Both the position numbers and the translations under genes were made by a program. From positions 2,657-66,656 of the forward strand of contig NYZB01000239.1 of NCBI GenBank assembly GCA_002687015.1: DNA of 64,000 nucleotides. The letters are read 5' to 3'. Positions 23,641-32,180 of this stretch are shown here, piece by piece; position 1 is the first letter of the stretch, and each line of letters opens with the position of its first letter. The notes under the pieces were generated by a model that was given only the letters and a program-made list of their open reading frames with translations, did no database searches and had not been told where the DNA came from. Source of the stretch: Deltaproteobacteria bacterium (lineage in GTDB: Bacteria; Myxococcota_A; UBA9160; UBA6930).

Positions 23641-24342
23641 TCAGCCGGATGGCTCCACACTCCCCAGAACGAAGTAGCGCTCCGTCTCCACGAGCTCCGG
23701 CCGCCAGCCGAGCGCGGCGAGCTCGGCCGCCAGGGCTGCCGCCGTGTAGTAGACCTTCACGATCCGGAAGCGGCGGCCGTCGTTCAGGGTCCGTTCGACG
23801 GTCGGGTCCTCGGCCGTGGGGTTCTCGGGGTGGCGGATGGAGCTCGACCGGAGGTTGTCGACCAGGAAGACCCGGCCGCCGGGAGCCAGTGCGGCGCCCA
23901 CGCGCTGCCAGAAGCGGGCCATGCGCGGGGCGGGCACGTGGGAGACCCAGAAGGCGAAGAAGACGAAGTCGTAGCGCTCCGCGGGCTGCCAGGAGAAGAC
24001 GTCTCCGATCTCGTAGCGCACCCGCGGGTCGCCGACGCGCGTGCGGTTGCGCGCCAGCGCCTCGGGCGAGCTGTCGAGAGCCGTCAGGGTCTCGGCCCGG
24101 CTCGCCAGGATGCGCGTCCAGTAGCCGGTGCCGGCCGCGATCTCCAGGACGCGCCCGCCCGGGCGGCTTGCCAGCAGGGCCCCTTGCACCTGGTCGAGCT
24201 CGTCCGCCCAACGCCGGTTGCCCTCCGCGCCCAGGTCGTAGCGGCCGCGGCGGGCGTACCACTCGTCGTACTCGGGGGCGCGCTCGCGGTAGTAGCGGAT
24301 CTGCTCCTCGAGCAGCCGCTCGTGGGGGTCGACCTTGGCCAT
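23641..24342 (-). CDS. class I SAM-dependent methyltransferase
   Basis: Motif I VLEIAAGTGYWT, plus the post-I acidic residue LTALDSS and GGRVFLVD. Confidence 0.85.
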   Translation of the reverse strand: MAKVDPHERLLEEQIRYYRERAPEYDEWYARRGRYDLGAEGNRRWADELDQVQGALLASRPGGRVLEIAAGTGYWTRILASRAETLTALDSSPEALARNRTRVGDPRVRYEIGDVFSWQPAERYDFVFFAFWVSHVPAPRMARFWQRVGAALAPGGRVFLVDNLRSSSIRHPENPTAEDPTVERTLNDGRRFRIVKVYYTAAALAAELAALGWRPELVETERYFVLGSVEPSG

Positions 24343-24382
24343 GGCGAGTGCGGGGGCCGGGCCGCTTGCGGCCCGGCGCTCC

Positions 24383-24820
24383 TCAATCGCGCATGCGTCG
24401 GGCCAGCCGCTCGTTCATGTAGGCGGTGGCGGCCTGCCAGGTCTCGTCGCCGACCGCGCTGCCGACCTCCTGGTGCATGGTGCCGATGCTCTCCAGGCTC
24501 GCCACGTGGGCCGTGCGCAGCGGCTCCTCCAGGGCGAGGAGGGCGGCCGCGTCGCCGCCACTCGCGAGGCCCAGGACCATCTCCCGGTGCTGCTTCAGCA
24601 GGGTGGTCAGGGCCGCGGTCACATCGGCCTGGTGCTGCTCGATCACGGCTTCGGCGGCCGCGATCTGCTCGTCGGTGGCGTCCTGCTCCTCGAGCGCATC
24701 GACGAGCCAGTCGGTGCCGTGCTCGAAGATCCAGCCGGCGCCGTCTTCGGCGGTGTGCCGCCGCCCACAGGCCGAGAGGCCCATGGCCAGGACCAGCAAG
24801 AGAACCGTGGCGAATCGCAT
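24383..24820 (-). CDS. periplasmic lipoprotein, possibly Spy/CpxP-like helical protein
   Basis: ORF 24383..24952 trimmed to MRFATVLLLVLAMGLSAC (lipobox). Helical and acidic, with an xTxxQ-like ATDEQ element. Confidence 0.5.
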   Translation of the reverse strand: MRFATVLLLVLAMGLSACGRRHTAEDGAGWIFEHGTDWLVDALEEQDATDEQIAAAEAVIEQHQADVTAALTTLLKQHREMVLGLASGGDAAALLALEEPLRTAHVASLESIGTMHQEVGSAVGDETWQAATAYMNERLARRMRD

Positions 24821-24935: not shown

Positions 24936-27900
24936 TCAGGGCACGGCCGCACTGCAGGAGGGTTGGAGCGCCGGCGGGAGCCCCAGGGACGCCCGCTTCA
25001 TGAAGGTGCCGTCCAGGCCGGTGCAGAGGCTGTCGCCGCTCACGTCGCACTTCTGCGGGGCCGCCAGATCGACGGGGCCGTTCGGGAAGGGCGCGAGGTT
25101 CAGGCTCGCCCGGGTCGCGAGGGTGCCGTCGAGACCCGTCACGAAGCCGTCGTCGTTGACGTCGCCGCACTGGCAGGCGTCCCCGATGCCGTCCGGAATC
25201 GACCCGGAACCGACGCCCCCCACATCGGCCTGGCCCGCGTTCGCGGTGTAGGGGCAGTTGTCGGATCCATCGGGGATCCCGTCCATGTCGGCGTCGCCCG
25301 GCAGCGGAGGCAGCGTGTTGGGCGGTGCGGTGGTGAAGGAGAGCACGTCTGCGGTGAGCTGACCCACGACGCGATCTCCCAGGTTGGAGCCGAACATGGT
25401 GAGGGCGAGCTGGCCGCCAGTCAGGAAGCCCAGCAGGGTGATGTTCGAGGGGTCGAAGAAATCGACCTCGGCGACGATGCCGTTGCCGAGGCCGTCGACG
25501 ATCGGCACCACTCCGGGCAGCACGGCCGGCACCAGCGTGTGGTCGACCGCGACCAGCGCCGCCGTCGAGGGGGCGGGGGGAGCGAGGATCAGGCTCAGGA
25601 GCCCGAACTCGTCGTTGCCGATCGGGTTCTGGTTCTTGTCGAAGGCCTGGAGCAGTGGGAAGCCGCCGGGAACCAGGGCCCGGGTGACACCGCCGATCGT
25701 GACCTCCGCCGTGGCGCAGGTGAGGCAGGCCGGGGGGTTGCCGCCGGTATCCGTCACCACGGTGTCGACGTCGATCGTAAGCGTGTCGCTGGGGTCGGCC
25801 TGGGCGATGCAGAAGCGCCCGGGCAGCGTGTGGGTGCTCGGCAGCGCAGCGAGCTCCGCCGCCACGTGGTTGTAGCGGTCGATCAGCCACTGCCGCACCA
25901 CGGCGATGGCCGCCGTCCGCGCCGGGTCGAACCACGGGTCGCCGGGGTCGTTGACCTGGGTCTCCATGCGGTCCAGCTCGGCGATCATCGCCGCGCTGCC
26001 CCCCGACGGGAAGAGCAGGGTGCGGAGCGCCTGGATCTTGGCCAGGTATTGCGCCTGGAAGGTGGGGATCTGGTAGAGGCGCTTCGAGATCTGGGAATTC
26101 AGGAGGATGACGGGAGCGACCGCGGCCGTGAGCCCGAACCCACCCCGCTCGCCGAAGGTGTCGTCGGCGCCCCACGGGATGAAGCGCAGCCCGGTGGCCG
26201 GGTCGTTGTAGAGGAAGAAGTTGTTGTTGCCGAGGTTGTAGCCGTCCCAGTGGCCGATCAGGCCCTCCATGGCCCAGAAGGTCATGAATGCGTCGATGTC
26301 CAGATGGTTGGCGAGATCGGCCGTGATCTCGGCGTCGCTTCCCTCGAGCAGATGCGCCAGGGCCAACAGGTCGAGGGTGTCGCCGCCGTTCTTGACCTCC
26401 ATCCGGCCGAAGTAGCCGGCCCGCAGGTCGGCGATGGTGCCCTCGTAGAGGTTCCCTCCGGCGCTGCCGAAGTTCCGGATCAGGAAAGGGTTCTTGATGC
26501 TCTCGACGTTCGCGAAGATGCCCATCTGCACGCCGTTGACGGTGACCTTGGCGTAGTTGCAGCGCGGCGCGGGCACCCCGGCCTGGCGCATCGCGTAGTA
26601 GGACATGCAGGTGTTCAGGTCCGTCGCATCCTGCCGCATGTTGTTCAAGGTCAGGCGATCCACGCCCTTGTAGTTCTGCCCCGAAACGAACTCGGTGAAG
26701 TCGATCTTGAGCGAGGGCCGCAAGGAGCTCAGCGAGCCCTGGAAGCCCTTCTTGCGCACGCCGACGTTGGAGAGCACCTGCCCGTCGACGGTGACGGTCG
26801 CGGGGAAGTAGGTGAAGGGGCTCGGGGGATGCGACTCGGCGCAGCCCAGCGCCGTCCCCAGGTCGCGGGTCTGGACGCGGAGGGCGTCCCAGTCCGCGGC
26901 CGCCATTGCGATGTCGACGTCGAGCACGATCGCCGGGTCGAACACGGCGTCGGTGGGATCGCTGACGTCGCAGAGCGGGTCGGCGACGGCACCGGGCCCG
27001 GGCGGGCCACCCAGGTAGCCGTTCAGGACGCTGACGTCCGCCGCATCGATCGTCAGGTCGTCGTTGAGATCGAAGAGCTCGTCGAAGCCGGGGTCACCGG
27101 AGGAGAGCCCGAGCTTCGCGTTGAGTGCGTTGGCATCGGCGGTGGCCACGGTTCCGTCGTTGTCGAAGTCGGGATCGCAGGCGTTGCCCACACCGTCGCC
27201 GTCCGAGTTCGTCTGGGCGAGGTTGTAGACGTCCTTGCAGTTGTCCCGGCAGTCGGCGATGCCGTCGAAGTCGCTATCGAGAACCGGCGTTCCGCCCTGC
27301 AGCGCGGAGAAGTCCTGCACCTGGGTGCCCGCGTTGAACACATTCGGGGCGCCGAAGGTGCTCGACGTGCCGTCGTTGTAGCCGAGGTCGGCTTCGGTCA
27401 CGAGGGCGCTCGGGTCGACCTCCAGCTTGAAGACCTCGTCGCTGCCGATGCCCCCGCCGATGATCACCTCACCGGTCGGGCCGAAGATGGCGCGGCCGCG
27501 ATCGTCCAGGATCGTGACCTCGAAGTCCCTGTTCGAGATGTCGACGTCCGCCTGGGGCGTCAGGTAGGTCGCAGCCGTCGAGCCGTTGCCGTTGACCCGG
27601 AGGGCGAGGCGGAAGTCCGAGGCGTCGGTGTCCTCGGGGATGTCGTCGGCCTCGAAGAGCACGATGATCGTGCCGGCGGCCAGGTTCGCCCAGAGCGCGT
27701 CGCCCGTGAAGCTGACCGTCTGGGCGGCGTTGCCGTCGTCGATGAGCTGGAGGCTCCAGCCACGGATGTCGAGGCCGTCGGCCACCACGACGAGCTCGAG
27801 CCAGTCGTTCTGCTCGCCGACGGGCGCTCCGAGGGAGCCGTTGCCGTTGACCGGCGTGCCGGGGGGTGTGCCGAGAAAGGGGTCGCTGCCTCCATTCTTC

Positions 27901-28025
27901 AGGGGCTTGTCTTCACGAACTCCGTTGTATTCGTTGACGATCAGGGGCGCCGCGAAAGCGGGGCCCGAGAGGACGAAGAACAACACGACCAGCAGCAAGC
28001 GCACGGAGCACCTCCATCGACACAC
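24936..28025 (-). CDS. large secreted CotH-kinase-family protein with lamin-tail domain and thrombospondin type-3/dockerin-like Ca-binding repeats
   Basis: Signal peptide. LTD (LIVNEYNG...NDWLELVV). TSP3 repeats (DSDFDGIADCRDNC, NSDGDGVGNACDPDFDNDG, DADMDGIPDGSDNCP). CotH core (SLKIDF...LTLNNMRQD...VNGVQMGIFANVESI...WAMEGLIGHWDGY...NNFFLYND). Confidence 0.85.
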   Translation of the reverse strand: MCRWRCSVRLLLVVLFFVLSGPAFAAPLIVNEYNGVREDKPLKNGGSDPFLGTPPGTPVNGNGSLGAPVGEQNDWLELVVVADGLDIRGWSLQLIDDGNAAQTVSFTGDALWANLAAGTIIVLFEADDIPEDTDASDFRLALRVNGNGSTAATYLTPQADVDISNRDFEVTILDDRGRAIFGPTGEVIIGGGIGSDEVFKLEVDPSALVTEADLGYNDGTSSTFGAPNVFNAGTQVQDFSALQGGTPVLDSDFDGIADCRDNCKDVYNLAQTNSDGDGVGNACDPDFDNDGTVATADANALNAKLGLSSGDPGFDELFDLNDDLTIDAADVSVLNGYLGGPPGPGAVADPLCDVSDPTDAVFDPAIVLDVDIAMAAADWDALRVQTRDLGTALGCAESHPPSPFTYFPATVTVDGQVLSNVGVRKKGFQGSLSSLRPSLKIDFTEFVSGQNYKGVDRLTLNNMRQDATDLNTCMSYYAMRQAGVPAPRCNYAKVTVNGVQMGIFANVESIKNPFLIRNFGSAGGNLYEGTIADLRAGYFGRMEVKNGGDTLDLLALAHLLEGSDAEITADLANHLDIDAFMTFWAMEGLIGHWDGYNLGNNNFFLYNDPATGLRFIPWGADDTFGERGGFGLTAAVAPVILLNSQISKRLYQIPTFQAQYLAKIQALRTLLFPSGGSAAMIAELDRMETQVNDPGDPWFDPARTAAIAVVRQWLIDRYNHVAAELAALPSTHTLPGRFCIAQADPSDTLTIDVDTVVTDTGGNPPACLTCATAEVTIGGVTRALVPGGFPLLQAFDKNQNPIGNDEFGLLSLILAPPAPSTAALVAVDHTLVPAVLPGVVPIVDGLGNGIVAEVDFFDPSNITLLGFLTGGQLALTMFGSNLGDRVVGQLTADVLSFTTAPPNTLPPLPGDADMDGIPDGSDNCPYTANAGQADVGGVGSGSIPDGIGDACQCGDVNDDGFVTGLDGTLATRASLNLAPFPNGPVDLAAPQKCDVSGDSLCTGLDGTFMKRASLGLPPALQPSCSAAVP

Positions 28026-28265: not shown

Positions 28266-28682
28266 TCACTGGGAGGGCGCATGCGGTCCCGGGTGTCGCG
28301 TCCCTCGTTCGTGCGTGGATCCCTGGTGTCTGGCCCACCGTATCCGGGCTGGCGACGGGGTGAACCCGAAGCCCGCTGTGGCGTTCGTCTCGTAATGGTA
28401 GTCGATGTGCGACCAGCTCACGTCCCCCTCGTGGTCTCCGTACTGGTCGGCCTTGGCTTTCGCAGCAGCGCGCACGGCCGACCCGATCGTGCCGTAGGGG
28501 ATGGTCGCGTTGAAGTCGAGCAGGGTCTGCGTATGACTGTCCGCATCGGCCAGGGAGGGGCCGGTGGGGGCTCGCAGGGTGACGAGGATCTTGGGACCCG
28601 CCGCGGCCAACGCAGCGCTCGGCATCGAGAGCATGATCAGGATGAGTGAAGAGAGTCCGGTCCGGCGCCATTGCTTTGACAT
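28266..28682 (-). CDS. hypothetical small secreted protein
   Basis: Signal peptide MSKQWRRTGLSSLILIMLSMPSAALA. No recognisable family. The C-terminal 30 residues look low-complexity. Confidence 0.45.
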   Translation of the reverse strand: MSKQWRRTGLSSLILIMLSMPSAALAAAGPKILVTLRAPTGPSLADADSHTQTLLDFNATIPYGTIGSAVRAAAKAKADQYGDHEGDVSWSHIDYHYETNATAGFGFTPSPARIRWARHQGSTHERGTRHPGPHAPSQ

Positions 28683-28830
28683 CGTCAACCTCGGCAGTCG
28701 TAGGAGGGTCGCAGTCGTTCGCGGGTTGGGCTTCGCCGGAAGCCTACATCGAATGGCGACACCACCGACTCTCCAAGATGGTCACGGGTGGACCGGGAGC
28801 AGGAAGAGGCTGGACTCGGCGCGGCTTCCT

Positions 28831-30099
28831 TCAACCCAGAGGGATCTCTCTGACCTGCCCATCCCGCTGCGTGTATCGAAGGGGAGCGCCCGCCTCGGAG
28901 GTCCCCTCCGCCCGATCCCAGGGCCGCGACCCGTAGATCGCCTCGCCGTTCGCCGCCAGGTACTCGCCCAGCCAGTGCAGTCGCTCGAGCTGCGGCTCGG
29001 GGATCTGGGCGTCCACCCCGCGCGGCCCGACGTTGAGGAGCAGGTTGCCGTTCTTGCTCACGATGTCGGCGAACGAGTGCAGCAGGTCCTCTCGGGTGAT
29101 GAAGTCCTCGGGCAGCGAGGTGTGGTTGTACCCGAAGCTCTTGTCCATGCCGCGCACGCACTCCCATTTCTTCTCCTGGATCTCCGGAAAGCTCGCGTAC
29201 TCGGGGGTGCGGTAGTCGTACACGGGCGGAGCCGGGGGAGCGATCATGCCGCCGGCCTTGGCGAGCTGGCGCTTCAGCAGCGCCTCGACCAGCCAGTTGA
29301 CGGGGCCCAGGCGGATCAAGGGGATCAGCCAGCTTCGCGCCAGCCAGCGGTCGTTGATCACGCCCTCGGGCACGGCGTTGTAGTAGTGGGCGACGAGCTC
29401 GTAGAGCTGGGCGTTCGGCTGGGGCCAGCTGATGTCGTTCCACAGCACGTCGGGCTCGTAGCGCTCGATCAGCTCGCGCACCTGGGCGGCAGCGTAGGCC
29501 GGGTAGGCGCCGCCGGGCATGCCAGCCAGCACGTCGACCAGGCCGCGCACGGGCCGGTCGTCGAAGGTCCAGTCGAGACCACCCGAGTAGTAGACCCCGA
29601 AGCGCAGGCCCTCCCCTCGCACGGCCGCGGCCAGCTCGCCCACGACGTCGCGGCCGGTGTTCCAGCCCTCGTACCTGGGGTTCGGATGGGGCACGGCGCT
29701 GGGCCACAGGCAGAAGCCGTCGTGGTGCTTGGTGACGAGCACGACGTAGCGCGCGCCCGCCTCCTTGAAGGCGCGCGCCCACGCCGCGGGCTGCCACTGG
29801 TCGAGGCCCTTTCGATAGGTGTCCGCGAAGGCCTCGTAGGGCTGGTCGCCGTACCTCTCCTGGTGGTGCCGCTGCACGGCGCTGCCCTCGAGCTTGAGGG
29901 AGTTCCAGTACCACTCGCTGTACGGCGAGTCGGTCTGCTCGCTCTCCCCGGCGAAGATGGCCTCGATCCCGGCCTCGCGTGGAGCAAAGGCGGGAACGGA
30001 GGAGACGCTCCAGTGGATGAAGATCCCGAGCTTGGCATCGTGATACCACTCGGGCACCGGGTGGCTGCGAAGGCTCTCGAGCGTGGGGGCATAGGACAT
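28831..30099 (-). CDS. alpha-L-fucosidase (GH29)
   Basis: ORF trimmed to MSYAPTLESL. Contains WYHDAKLGIFIHW, YVVLVTKHHDGFCLWPS, RFGVYYS, LWND and LLLNVGP. Confidence 0.9.
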   Translation of the reverse strand: MSYAPTLESLRSHPVPEWYHDAKLGIFIHWSVSSVPAFAPREAGIEAIFAGESEQTDSPYSEWYWNSLKLEGSAVQRHHQERYGDQPYEAFADTYRKGLDQWQPAAWARAFKEAGARYVVLVTKHHDGFCLWPSAVPHPNPRYEGWNTGRDVVGELAAAVRGEGLRFGVYYSGGLDWTFDDRPVRGLVDVLAGMPGGAYPAYAAAQVRELIERYEPDVLWNDISWPQPNAQLYELVAHYYNAVPEGVINDRWLARSWLIPLIRLGPVNWLVEALLKRQLAKAGGMIAPPAPPVYDYRTPEYASFPEIQEKKWECVRGMDKSFGYNHTSLPEDFITREDLLHSFADIVSKNGNLLLNVGPRGVDAQIPEPQLERLHWLGEYLAANGEAIYGSRPWDRAEGTSEAGAPLRYTQRDGQVREIPLG

Positions 30100-30235
30100 G
30101 CCCGCATGCTCGCTCAGTTGCCCGGCGGAGGCGAGGCGGCACCTCGTCGATTCGTCGGGGCCGGCCAACGCTCAGAGCGACGCCGAGATGAACGACCGGG
30201 AGGACGAGCCGGGCCAGCCGTAGCCGGGGAGCGGG

Positions 30236-31468
30236 CTACCTCCTCCGCTTCTTCTTCTTTTTCTTCTTCTTTTTCTTTTTCTTCTTCTTCTTCTTCTTGC
30301 GCTTCTTCTTCTTTTTCTTCTTCTTCTTCTTGTCGACCTTGGGCGGCTTCGCGGCCTGCTTGACGGCTGCCACGGCGCTGAGGTCGGAGACCAGGGTCAC
30401 TCCGTTCGTGTCGAGGCCGTCGGCCAGGACCCGGATCGATTGACCGGCAAGGGTGGCGGGGATCGTCCACGTGTACTTGTTGCTGGTCACGCCCTGGGCG
30501 ATGGGCAGGAAGACCGAGTCGCCTTCCACACGATAAGAGAGATCCACGCTGCTGAGGCCGGTCTGATTCCACGAGATCGGGTAGGTCCCGCCCGGGTCGA
30601 GCAGCGAGTTCTGGTTCGGCCCCAGGACGTCTAGCGTGGCGGCTCGGGTATCGGGCACGACCGTGGGGCGATAGGCCGCCACCTGGGAGGCCACGGCGCG
30701 CAGGCTGTCCGCGGCATCGGCTCCGTTCGCGGCATTGCCCTTGCTGATGCCGCAGGGTGCGCCGCCCGCGCAGGTGAGACTGGGGGTCGAGAAGACGTGC
30801 ACCTTGGGTGCGCGGGCGAAGGCCGAGCCGTAGGCCATCATCGTCACGAAGCTGCCGTTCACGCCATAGCCGAGGGACCAGGGGTAGGTGCCACCCTGGC
30901 CGTTCTGGCGACGCGAGTGGGTCAGGCCGAGATTGTGTCCGAGCTCGTGACCGAGGACGTAGTCCGAGCAGTCGACGGAGACGTGGCTGTAGCCGTAGCG
31001 GCGCGAGCCTGCGAGGTTTCCGCCGGAGTGGTAGCCGCCGACCCATGCGATGCCGCAGATCCCGTCTCCGACGTAGGGCCGGAGAAGGACGACCAGGTCG
31101 GCTCCGACCTGGTCGCGGAGCACCTCGGTGCCGGCGAAGACGCCACGGTTGAAGGTCAGATCGTTGAGTGCCGTCGGCGAGTCCGGGCCGTTGCCGTAGG
31201 CGACCTCCAGGCTGTGCACCGCACGCAGCCGCATGCCCGCTTCGGAGCGGCGGAAGGCATCGTTGCTGACAGCGACGATCTGGTCGATTCGCGGATCGAC
31301 TCCGCTGCCGTAGCGTGCCGTCACCGCCGGGTTGTAGAGGAAGAGGACATCCAGGGTGACGGGTGTCGGCTCGACGGCTCGGGCAGGCTCCGGAGTCGCG
31401 AGACCCAGGGCCATGCCGAGCACAGCCACAAGGGTGCACACCTGCTTCATCCATCGGGTGAGAATCAT
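30236..31468 (-). CDS. secreted metzincin (reprolysin/M12B-like) zinc metalloprotease with C-terminal poly-lysine tail
   Basis: Signal peptide MKQVCTLVAVLGMALGLA. HELGHNLGLTH zinc motif with a downstream TMMAYG Met-turn. Beta-sandwich-like C-domain. Ends in K10-R-K17-RRR. Start is 31468 or 31450. Confidence 0.85.
   Translation of the reverse strand: MILTRWMKQVCTLVAVLGMALGLATPEPARAVEPTPVTLDVLFLYNPAVTARYGSGVDPRIDQIVAVSNDAFRRSEAGMRLRAVHSLEVAYGNGPDSPTALNDLTFNRGVFAGTEVLRDQVGADLVVLLRPYVGDGICGIAWVGGYHSGGNLAGSRRYGYSHVSVDCSDYVLGHELGHNLGLTHSRRQNGQGGTYPWSLGYGVNGSFVTMMAYGSAFARAPKVHVFSTPSLTCAGGAPCGISKGNAANGADAADSLRAVASQVAAYRPTVVPDTRAATLDVLGPNQNSLLDPGGTYPISWNQTGLSSVDLSYRVEGDSVFLPIAQGVTSNKYTWTIPATLAGQSIRVLADGLDTNGVTLVSDLSAVAAVKQAAKPPKVDKKKKKKKKKKRKKKKKKKKKKKKKKKKKRRR
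30239..30332 (-). repeat. imperfect (AAG/AAA)n trinucleotide tract encoding 31 consecutive Lys/Arg
   Basis: About 94 nt of nearly pure pyrimidine on the plus strand (CTT/TTT units, with one GCG and CCTCCTCCG). Codons are 23 AAG, 4 AAA, 1 CGC, 2 AGG and 1 CGG. Confidence 0.95.
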
Positions 31469-31478
31469 CGGGCGCCTC

Positions 31479-32180
31479 CTACGCCGGCTCTTCGCCGGGC
31501 TCGGGGGGAAGGAGTTCGTCGCTCTGGTCGGGGTCGATCAGCTGGTCCAGATCGTCGGCGTAGATGGACGCGGCGCCGCCGGTGCCCTCGAGCAGGTAGT
31601 TGCCGTAGGGCGTGGTGATGCGGCCGAAGAGCGCGGTGTGCCCCTGGGTCAGGGTCACCGCGTAGGCGGAGTCGAAGCCGTCGAGGGAGCCGCTGAGGCC
31701 GAGGCTGCCGAGGGGCGTGGTCTCGACGTGCTCGATCGTCGCCACGAGGGTGCCGAGTCCGGGGATGGGCAACGAGATCTGGTCGCCCACGCCCAGTGTG
31801 CCCACCTGCCCGGGGTCGAGGCGGAGCGCGTGGCGTTCGGGCCGATAGTCGCCGATCGGGTGATCGAAGGCGTGCACCGAGTCCTCGGTGATCTCCCAGA
31901 GGCCAACGGGTGCGCGCTCGAGCGAAGCCCCCAGGAGCGAACCGGAAGCCGCGGCGGCCCCGCGAGAGGCGGGCTCGTCCTCGCGGCGGTCCCGCGAGTC
32001 CGAGGCCTGGAGCGGGCCGGCGTGCCCGCCCGGCGCCGGGGGAGCCCAGGCGGAGCCCTGCCAGGGAAGCGAGCCGGCCGGGACCAGGGTTGCCGCAGCC
32101 GCCAGGGCACCCAGGCCTGCGAGGGCGGGTAGCCAGCGTCTGGCGCGTGATCGATCTCTGGACGGACGGGTGGACCCCAT
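31479..32180 (-). CDS. hypothetical secreted protein encoded immediately upstream of the metalloprotease
   Basis: 233 aa. Arg-rich N-region plus hydrophobic stretch (RARRWLPALAGLGALAAAATLV, possibly Tat-type). 10-nt gap to the protease gene. Acidic C-terminus. Confidence 0.55.
   Translation of the reverse strand: MGSTRPSRDRSRARRWLPALAGLGALAAAATLVPAGSLPWQGSAWAPPAPGGHAGPLQASDSRDRREDEPASRGAAAASGSLLGASLERAPVGLWEITEDSVHAFDHPIGDYRPERHALRLDPGQVGTLGVGDQISLPIPGLGTLVATIEHVETTPLGSLGLSGSLDGFDSAYAVTLTQGHTALFGRITTPYGNYLLEGTGGAASIYADDLDQLIDPDQSDELLPPEPGEEPA

Follow-up and report, generated by a model that had tools for sequence, protein, structure and literature searches.

A metzincin-like protease with a 31-residue polybasic C-terminal tail in an uncultured Myxococcota-like bacterium

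Protease gene and domain organization

The stretch of DNA analysed here (the window) comprises 64,000 nucleotides of a deltaproteobacterial assembly (GCA_002687015.1, contig NYZB01000239.1, positions 2,657 to 66,656) and contains a gene for a metzincin-like protease whose last 31 residues are all lysine or arginine. An identical 410-amino-acid product has been called by gene callers on nine contigs from marine metagenome assemblies. The final residues, encoded by nt 30239..30331, read KKKKKKKKKKRKKKKKKKKKKKKKKKKKRRR and are followed directly by a TAG stop codon (30236..30238). An earlier model-made reading of this DNA from its letters and open reading frames (ORFs), here called the sequence-only reading, had described a protease that runs into K10-R-K17-RRR and then stops, and the translation agrees with it. 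Table 1 lists the parts of the protein and the genes around it.

Table 1. Coordinates of the protease, its parts and neighbouring genes in the window
Feature	Position	Strand	Basis or remark
Class I S-adenosylmethionine (SAM) methyltransferase gene	23641..24414	-	
Gene for a 1029-aa secreted-looking protein	24936..28025	-	
Gene for a 140-aa protein	28266..28688	-	
alpha-L-fucosidase gene	28831..30168	-	Pfam, E = 8e-82; about 70-136 nt downstream of the tract/protease
Protease coding sequence, 410 codons + TAG (stop included)	30236..31468	-	ORF list; 410-aa Mep72/CpaA-like metzincin with polybasic tail
Polybasic tail K10-R-K17-RRR, 31 residues, net +31	30239..30331	-	Translation; imperfect (AAG)n
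Linker QAAKPPKVD	30332..30358	-	Alignment and translations
Domain 2, Ig/FN3-like (Kre9_KNH-like) beta-sandwich, residues 278-370	30359..30637	-	AlphaFold, Foldseek, Pfam
Metzincin catalytic domain, residues ~38-279	30632..31357	-	NCBIfam Mep72 profile positions 1-244 and Pfam Reprolysin_4/3/5
Zinc-binding motif HELGHNLGLTH, residues 174-184	30917..30949	-	Translation; fits HEXXHXXGXXH
Predicted Sec signal peptide, residues 1-31	31376..31468	-	Read from sequence
Partner gene, 233 aa, CpaB/BamI-like putative chaperone/inhibitor	31479..32180	-	Separated from the protease start codon by 10 nt
Stop-to-stop ORF, 728 codons	34336..36522	-	

The signal peptide is parsed as MILTRWMKQ / VCTLVAVLGMALGLA / TPEPARA with a predicted cleavage before VEPTP, and its hydrophobic core has a Kyte-Doolittle hydropathy of 2.41. 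No lipobox was found when the predicted signal peptide was read for one. In the family alignment, the AxA site directly precedes the invariant residues E33-P34-x-P36. The domain that follows scores above the Pfam cutoffs for Reprolysin_4 (64.1 bits versus 22), Reprolysin_3 (49.1 versus 22.4) and Reprolysin_5 (46.7 versus 27), and residues H174, E175, H178, H184 and M211 are invariant among 12 aligned family members. These matches assign the catalytic domain to the metzincins of the reprolysin-like M12B families (clan MA(M)). M211, downstream of the zinc motif, is a candidate for the Met-turn and lies in a segment, residues 179-275, where the AlphaFold model is poor. The full-length model was built from 12 sequences and is unreliable for the catalytic domain as a whole, where the mean predicted local distance difference test score (pLDDT) is 61.8.

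Domain 2 is predicted confidently as a beta-sandwich (pLDDT 81-94). Its Foldseek matches are FN3-like modules, and it has a weak match to Pfam Kre9_KNH that falls under the cutoff (E = 0.0045). A metzincin with a beta-sandwich domain and a secreted-type N-terminus, as the sequence-only reading had proposed, is thus borne out. The same model predicts a high-confidence helix for the poly-lysine tail, which we treated as a low-complexity artefact and did not use. The catalytic domain has a net charge of 0 and domain 2 a net charge of -3, so that virtually all of the net +28 of the mature protein resides in the tail. This appendage also holds 27 of the 33 lysines of the mature protein, leaving 6 for the folded body. 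Within the linker, a di-proline motif, PPxV(D), is kept directly ahead of the tail throughout the long-tail clade described below.

Domain 2 corresponds to a unit of about 90 amino acids with the pattern LTSPNGGE...W...Y.W.VP...IRV (30359..30637, minus strand, in the window; P0033-P0045). Tandem arrays of 40-50 copies of this unit occur in giant proteins, 4-7 thousand residues long, that have C-termini of the type IX secretion system kind.

The tract that encodes the tail

The tail is encoded by 23 AAG, 4 AAA, 1 CGC, 1 CGG and 2 AGG codons, and purines make up 96.8% of its 93 nt on the coding strand. On the plus strand, these appear as two uninterrupted pyrimidine stretches, one of 51 nt (30248..30298) and one of 30 nt (30302..30331), which are the sole homopurine/homopyrimidine runs of at least 20 nt in the window, where the GC content is 70%. 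At most 6 (AAG) units follow one another without interruption. Lysine and arginine make up about 11.6% of the codons in the genes of the window, which gives a chance of about 1e-29 for 31 consecutive basic residues. The nearly pure-purine tract in a high-GC genome and the counts of 23 AAG and 4 AAA codons are exactly as the sequence-only reading had reported them. That reading had also taken the excess of AAG as avoidance of slippery A-runs and as a sign of selection, and this does not survive comparison with the background. AAG accounts for 290 of 299 lysine codons (97%) in the other genes of the window versus 85% in the tail, where AAA is about fivefold enriched (Fisher p = 0.016). The codon pattern of the tail is genome bias plus repeat drift rather than avoidance of slippery A-runs.

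An assembly artefact, a concern that had been raised for this tract, is ruled out with near certainty by an identical gene in six contigs from different assemblers. The contigs that were read (MEGAHIT k119/k127, SPAdes and Tara scaffolds) have a gene and downstream spacer 100% identical to those of the window, and with 0-1 mismatch to the window over 7-21 kb they represent one clonal population. They were picked by exact protein identity and are clonal, so they bear on assembly error and not on polymorphism in tract length.

The (GAA)n-type runs of 51 and 30 nt fit the mirror-repeat sequence pattern of H-DNA, a triplex that is here predicted from sequence. Since the repeat unit is a triplet, slippage would keep the reading frame, in contrast to the frame switching of a contingency locus. 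Two further features of the tract are side observations. Its complement creates a terminator-like hairpin with a T-rich run on the plus strand (30226..30253), which is opposite to the strand of the local genes and probably incidental. A scan for promoters and terminators found no promoter-like site, and its sole terminator-like matches were those on the wrong strand that derive from this T-rich complement. The final codons AGG AGG (30239..30244, minus strand) form a perfect Shine-Dalgarno-like AGGAGG just ahead of the TAG, and no suitably spaced start codon was found after it. This genome seldom uses AGG, and both codons are probably derived from AAG.

Tails in related proteases

Four close relatives also end in long polybasic tails. 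The nearest (L007, 78% identity, from the metagenome-assembled genome (MAG) 'Deltaproteobacteria bacterium OFTM245') ends in VD-K15-R-K6-R-KK, and a metagenome contig at 63% identity (L025) ends in VD-K13-R-K9-N-RR. Two metagenomic proteins have tails of 32 residues, one with 15 K, 14 R, 2 H and 1 G (P0001, 70% identity) and the other with 17 K, 9 R and 6 other residues (P0002, 68% identity). These four, with tails of 25-32 residues, form one clade with the protease of the window in a neighbour-joining tree calculated with the tails removed. The five lineages are the only ones known to have long tails, and a database search with the tail left out of the query recovered the same small family. 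The nearest relatives belong to Myxococcota/'Deltaproteobacteria' MAGs.

Other basic tails occur outside of this clade. A sister group at about 50% identity, which includes the complete Myxococcota MAG chromosome OZ245002, has tails with 6-16 lysine or arginine residues, such as KKKRRRRR, KTKKRRRRRRR, KKKGKRRKRRRR and KTKKKRKKRRRRRRRR. Some other relatives have only 2-3 basic C-terminal residues. Independent basic tails are present on more distant branches, where P0049 ends in RIKKAKKKK and P0173 has a K-x-K tail of 40 residues. Judged from this distribution, basic tails arose repeatedly in the family. In the clade at about 50% identity, domain 2 itself also carries basic insertion loops, for example EKKKRRRRW and PAKKKKKKTRV.

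The DNA beneath these tails is less uniform than their charge. The window, L007 and L025 have imperfect (AAG)n tracts with differing interruption patterns and tail lengths of 31, 25 and 26, whereas P0001 and P0002 use mixed AAG/CGN/AGR codons, and their purine runs do not exceed 12 and 21 nt, respectively. Because the latter two encode equivalent tails without long purine runs, it is the charge that is conserved and not the purine tract or its triplex potential. The proposal of a triplex-prone tract consequently holds for the lineage of the window and fails as a conserved property. Of the 9 codons that differ from AAG by one base, only 2 encode a positively charged residue, and still arginine occupies 14 of the 17 non-lysine positions in the P0001 tail and 9 of 15 in that of P0002. 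Codons of the AGR type can be reached from AAG or AAA by one transition; they are enriched in the tails, where they account for 8 of 38 arginine codons, compared with 118 of 1448 background ones (p = 0.012). This pattern looks like replacement of lysine by arginine driven by GC pressure while purifying selection preserves the charge, if the ancestral tail is assumed to have been rich in lysine.

These comparisons argue that the tail is a genuine, translated C-terminal module that is selected at the protein level. The sequence-only reading had considered it a selected feature rather than junk, and the tails of 25-32 residues in four close relatives and of 6-16 residues in the clade at about 50% identity support that view. 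The close homologs do not end at PPKVD, which had been named beforehand as the outcome that would speak against it. In-frame length change by slippage, which had been suggested as well, fits the tails of 25, 26 and 31 residues, whose coding tracts differ by multiples of three nucleotides. The comparative data support a tail whose length changes through (AAG)n slippage and whose composition changes through lysine-to-arginine point changes, while selection holds its charge.

Partner gene and secretion route

The gene immediately upstream of the protease encodes a protein with a hydrophobic segment or anchor at its N-terminus and, near its C-terminus, the invariant acidic motif DDLxxLxDxxxxD. The motif recalls the tail with which CpaB plugs the active site of CpaA. 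The partner and protease genes are syntenic in at least eight related loci (L007, L008, L019, L022, L024, L025, L027 and L028). The NCBIfam matches of the partner are to CpaB (30.8 bits, E = 2.6e-7) and BamI (22.9 bits, E = 6.4e-5), both under the curated cutoffs of 90 and 180 bits. Precomputed Pfam BamI_lipocalin matches exist for its orthologs, and our own Pfam search of the partner gave none. A profile of the partner family has CpaB as its sole match in the PDB, at a marginal E of 0.91, and a single-sequence search there gave nothing. Partners are strongly acidic, with a net charge of -7 to -19 over the last 150 residues. Co-evolution of tail length with this acidity is not seen, because the partners in L027 and L028 are equally acidic and the adjacent proteases end in 2-3 basic residues.

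The protease itself points to the same two systems. Its best NCBIfam match is Mep72 (NF052434; E = 5e-66), where it aligns to profile positions 1-244 of 573 with 223 bits versus an equivalog cutoff of 645, and its next match is CpaA. CpaA (6O38) is also its sole relative in the PDB by sequence (E = 2.3e-4) and its top Foldseek match, ahead of snake-venom and ADAM metalloproteinases. By these similarities, the locus is best described as a protease-partner pair of the Mep72/BamI-CpaA/CpaB type. It belongs to neither named equivalog, as its scores are under the curated thresholds and its C-terminal architecture differs.

Mep72 and BamI of Pseudomonas aeruginosa (PA2783/PA2782) share with the pair described here a metzincin domain, an N-terminal Sec signal, a small partner gene immediately upstream and a noncatalytic C-terminal region (PMC4334185). 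In that species, bamI and mep72 form an operon, BamI binds Mep72 and neutralises its toxicity, and the protease is type II secreted and associated with biofilms (PMC4334185). The C-terminal regions differ. Mep72 has two tandem carbohydrate-binding modules (CBMs), which are cut off in processing (PMC4334185), in place of the single Ig/FN3-like domain and 31-residue polycation found here. The resemblance of the partner to BamI is weak, and the Mep72 score of the protease is also far under its cutoff. The polyanion alginate slows autodegradation of Mep72 (PMC4334185).

The Acinetobacter pair CpaA/CpaB provides the best structural and sequence match in the PDB and has a partner with an N-terminal anchor and a conserved C-terminal tail (6O38; PMC7542363, PMC4713064). 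CpaB is a chaperone anchored in the membrane, and its C-terminal tail occludes the active site of CpaA, a type II secretion system (T2SS) substrate (PMC7542363). CpaA differs in having four glycan-binding repeats on the N-terminal side of the catalytic domain and no basic tail, and the similarity extends over about 180 residues with all scores under cutoffs. Both Mep72 and CpaA depend on their partners (PMC4334185, PMC7542363). By analogy, the protease of the window is probably type II secreted.

A possible polycationic tether

We favor, with a probability of about 0.5, the interpretation that the tail is a disordered polycationic tether that would hold the enzyme at polyanionic surfaces. Among the roles that the sequence-only reading had put forward (tether, autoinhibitory element or secretion-related element), the context speaks most for the first. 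The protease would be made with its Sec signal peptide and cross the inner membrane. In the periplasm, the CpaB/BamI-like partner may hold and inhibit it, judging from its homologs, and export would then probably proceed through the T2SS. Once outside, the +31 tail, carried by a PP-containing linker that follows an Ig-like spacer, could bind polyanions multivalently. Candidate polyanions include lipopolysaccharide (LPS) phosphates on the outer membrane or the vesicles of the producer itself, exopolysaccharide of an acidic or sulfated kind, extracellular DNA and similar surfaces on particles or other cells. Binding of this kind would concentrate the enzyme at a surface and keep it from diffusing into seawater. 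The distribution of charge counts for a tether, since the folded body is neutral to acidic and the +31 is confined to a terminal appendage.

Other members of the family carry recognizable modules at the same position. P0138 has a GlyGly-CTERM match (18 bits versus a cutoff of 15.5) and P0165 a JDVT-CTERM match (28.2 versus 27) in NCBIfam searches of the family C-termini. Further C-termini include the K-x-K tail of P0173, which resembles those of HBHA and H1, and long helical, coiled-coil-like extensions (P0072/P0095). Because the CBMs of Mep72, the GlyGly-CTERM and JDVT-CTERM domains and the helical extensions occupy the position of the tail, the family appears to have at its C-terminus an exchangeable slot for localisation modules.

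The tags known as GlyGly-CTERM (with rhombosortase), MYXO-CTERM (with myxosortase), JDVT-CTERM and PEP-CTERM are also located at the extreme C-terminus of secreted enzymes and also end in a basic cluster. GlyGly-CTERM retains the T2SS-dependent protease VesB at the Vibrio surface, and MYXO-CTERM acts likewise in Myxococcota (PMC6219818, PMC11980579). The outcome in these systems, a secreted enzyme kept at the cell surface, is the one proposed here. The protease of the window differs in that its basic cluster has 31 residues and not 3-6, and its retention would be noncovalent and electrostatic rather than lipid-anchored. No CTERM signature was found in it by sorting-domain hidden Markov model (HMM) searches, nor was a hydrophobic helix found in its last 80 residues, where the maximum 17-residue Kyte-Doolittle value is 1.19.

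Several polybasic C-termini and tags are known to bind polyanions. The Lys-rich C-terminus of mycobacterial HBHA binds heparan sulfate and sulfated glycans (PMC8467707). HBHA, the lysine repeats of Streptomyces TopA and histone-like proteins all have disordered Lys-rich C-termini that bind polyanions such as heparan sulfate or DNA multivalently, and the K-, A-, P- and T-rich tail of P0173 is of this style. These tails differ in being interrupted repeats (KKAAPA and similar), mostly on cytoplasmic nucleic-acid-binding proteins or adhesins (PMC6821194), and none is a near-homopolymeric K27 on a protease that has a signal peptide. In Artilysins, polycationic peptide tags (the polycationic nonapeptide KRKKRKKRK) direct enzymes to the LPS layer (PMC4161244), and the polybasic C-terminus of human GBP1 binds LPS (PMC7327485). 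These tags resemble the tail in that a short polycation directs an enzyme or effector to the LPS layer. They differ in having at most nine residues and in being artificial or eukaryotic, whereas the tail is natural, three times longer and attached to a protease instead of a muramidase.

Several observations weigh against a tether. Several family members make do with 2-3 basic residues or have no domain 2, which makes the tail dispensable for the family. Nor does it look like a sorting tag in general use by the organism, as no other ORF ending in a polybasic run was found in the 381 kb of the window and related loci. The partner and Mep72 HMM scores are under curated cutoffs, which leaves the secretion route to be deduced by homology, and no type II secretion genes were found within the window. 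Positive charges are rate-limiting in SecYEG and lysine passes more readily than arginine, and a 31-residue polycation has to cross this channel against the membrane potential, with arginine being especially slow (PMC9110029). By computation, the producer's own surface, matrix, particles and prey are equally good candidates for the binding target. Finally, the ionic strength of seawater weakens electrostatic binding. Polyelectrolyte theory holds that a valence near 30 should still bind at this ionic strength, and the counter-ion-release theory of oligolysine-polyanion binding has affinity climb steeply with valence and drop with salt. If so, only long tails would be useful at seawater ionic strength, which would rationalise the tails of at least 25 residues in this marine lineage.

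Alternative explanations

The tail could instead be an offensive polycation that disorganises the outer membranes of other Gram-negative bacteria, whether prey or competitors, by displacing divalent cations from their LPS in the manner of an Artilysin or poly-L-lysine. In variants of this idea, the protease or a released K31 peptide breaches the envelope, or the tail is a cell-penetrating or nuclear-targeting tag for eukaryotic hosts. Engineered polycationic nonapeptide tags act in this way for endolysins (PMC4161244). A cut similar to the one that severs the C-terminal modules from the metzincin domain of Mep72 (PMC4334185) could free the polycation. The predator-rich phylum of the nearest relatives and the minimum length of 25 residues in the long-tail clade also agree with a weapon. 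Lysine polymers of about 20 residues reportedly permeabilise outer membranes, a finding ascribed to Vaara and Vaara (1983). Nevertheless, the tails of relatives become gradually shorter, down to 2-6 residues, and such a gradation suits adjustable adhesion better than a weapon that depends on a threshold. The chaperone/inhibitor aside, there is no evident immunity gene, and the first target would be the producer's own LPS. We regard an offensive role as physically plausible but unlikely. Its most specific form is slightly less likely still, namely a natural 'Artilysin' in which an alpha-poly-lysine warhead on a type-II-secreted metzincin disorganises the LPS of other Gram-negatives, or in which Mep72-style autoprocessing frees K31 as an antimicrobial or cell-penetrating peptide, with triplet slippage tuning its length. 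A role inside of the producer seems more doubtful than either. Here the tail would dock on the acidic partner or on anionic inner-membrane lipids, slow the final stage of Sec translocation or of ribosome release, or keep the enzyme latent until the tail is removed. A strongly acidic partner with an acidic C-terminal motif, the conserved PP motif and a length that roughly fills the ribosomal exit tunnel are compatible with such a role. So is the ratio of 27 lysines to 4 arginines in a genome whose genes use arginine about five times more than lysine, given the easier passage of lysine through SecYEG (PMC9110029). However, partner acidity does not co-vary with tail length (L027, L028), the C-terminal tail of CpaB occludes an active site without a known charge-pairing role (PMC7542363), and relatives with medium tails end in R5-R8 runs, contrary to Sec compatibility as the driver. 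A poly-lysine peptide is also not an obvious zinc-site inhibitor, and our analysis found no evidence of autoinhibition by the tail.

Two further explanations place the cause in the DNA. The tract might be a tolerated microsatellite that expanded by (AAG)n slippage at an unconstrained 3' end of the gene, making poly-lysine neutral or nearly neutral baggage. The three lineages with nearly pure (AAG)n, differently interrupted and of different lengths, are what such a process would leave, AAA is enriched relative to codon bias as in a drifting repeat, and the long tail is missing from many relatives. A neutral AT-rich repeat in a 70% GC genome should, however, decay to mixed residues and stops. 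The charge has instead survived codon diversification (P0001, P0002), no truncation is seen in lineages at 63-78% identity, and basic tails in other clades arose independently from CGN codons rather than (AAG)n. We consider neutral baggage improbable, about as much so as a role inside of the producer. Least probable of all, and by our estimate barely credible, is a DNA-level element in which the GAA/TTC-type tract forms H-DNA and serves in regulation, recombination or phase variation, with the downstream fucosidase gene as one conceivable target. The two homopurine runs are unique in the window, the tract lies about 70-135 nt upstream of the fucosidase start codon, and it creates a terminator-like hairpin and T-run on the plus strand. 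This hairpin is on the strand opposite the local genes, though, and there is no promoter-like site in the scan described above. Moreover, triplet units cannot toggle the reading frame, the purine run shrinks to 12 and 21 nt in P0001 and P0002, and the downstream neighbour differs in L007, L022 and L024, which have a convergent FKBP gene there.

Implications

Prokaryotic Lys-rich low-complexity regions are known mainly from cytoplasmic nucleic-acid-binding proteins (PMC6821194), which makes a near-homopolymeric tail of 27 lysines and 4 arginines on a protease with a signal peptide unusual. The combination of an Ig-like domain with a polycation of 25-32 residues adds a new C-terminal version to a known protease-chaperone system, and the analysis extends the Mep72/BamI-CpaA/CpaB pairing to uncultured Myxococcota-like lineages. 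If the tail is a tether, then it would be a minimal, enzyme-independent means of retaining secreted enzymes at surfaces or matrices, alongside lipid anchors and GlyGly-CTERM/MYXO-CTERM tags, and it could explain how marine bacteria stop exoenzymes from diffusing off at high ionic strength. If it is a natural 'Artilysin', then it would represent a previously undescribed class of polycation-armed secreted enzymes and a natural substrate showing that SecYEG exports a run of 27 lysines. The tail provides a natural test case for the handling of extreme positive charge by Sec, including the lysine 'proton ratchet' idea, and a natural template for polycation-tagged enzymes in biotechnology.

Neighbouring genes

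The chromosomal neighbourhood of the protease is rich in exported proteins. A functional link to the adjacent fucosidase through binding of sulfated fucans is unsupported by synteny, as a convergent FKBP-type gene occupies this place in L007, L022 and L024. The 140-aa protein encoded between the fucosidase and CotH genes has a signal-peptide-like N-terminus and no family match, and it is conserved in clonal contigs only. The 1029-aa protein beyond it has an unusual combination of a CotH kinase domain, thrombospondin type-3 repeats and a dockerin. The SAM methyltransferase gene is 6 kb from the protease and is not adjacent to it in relatives. Lysine methylation protects the Lys-rich tail of HBHA. 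On the other side of the partner gene, the 728-codon ORF has a C-terminal autotransporter beta-domain (E = 9e-51) and a passenger region that lacks a Pfam match, and in other assemblies it was called as two products of 443 and 511 amino acids that overlap.

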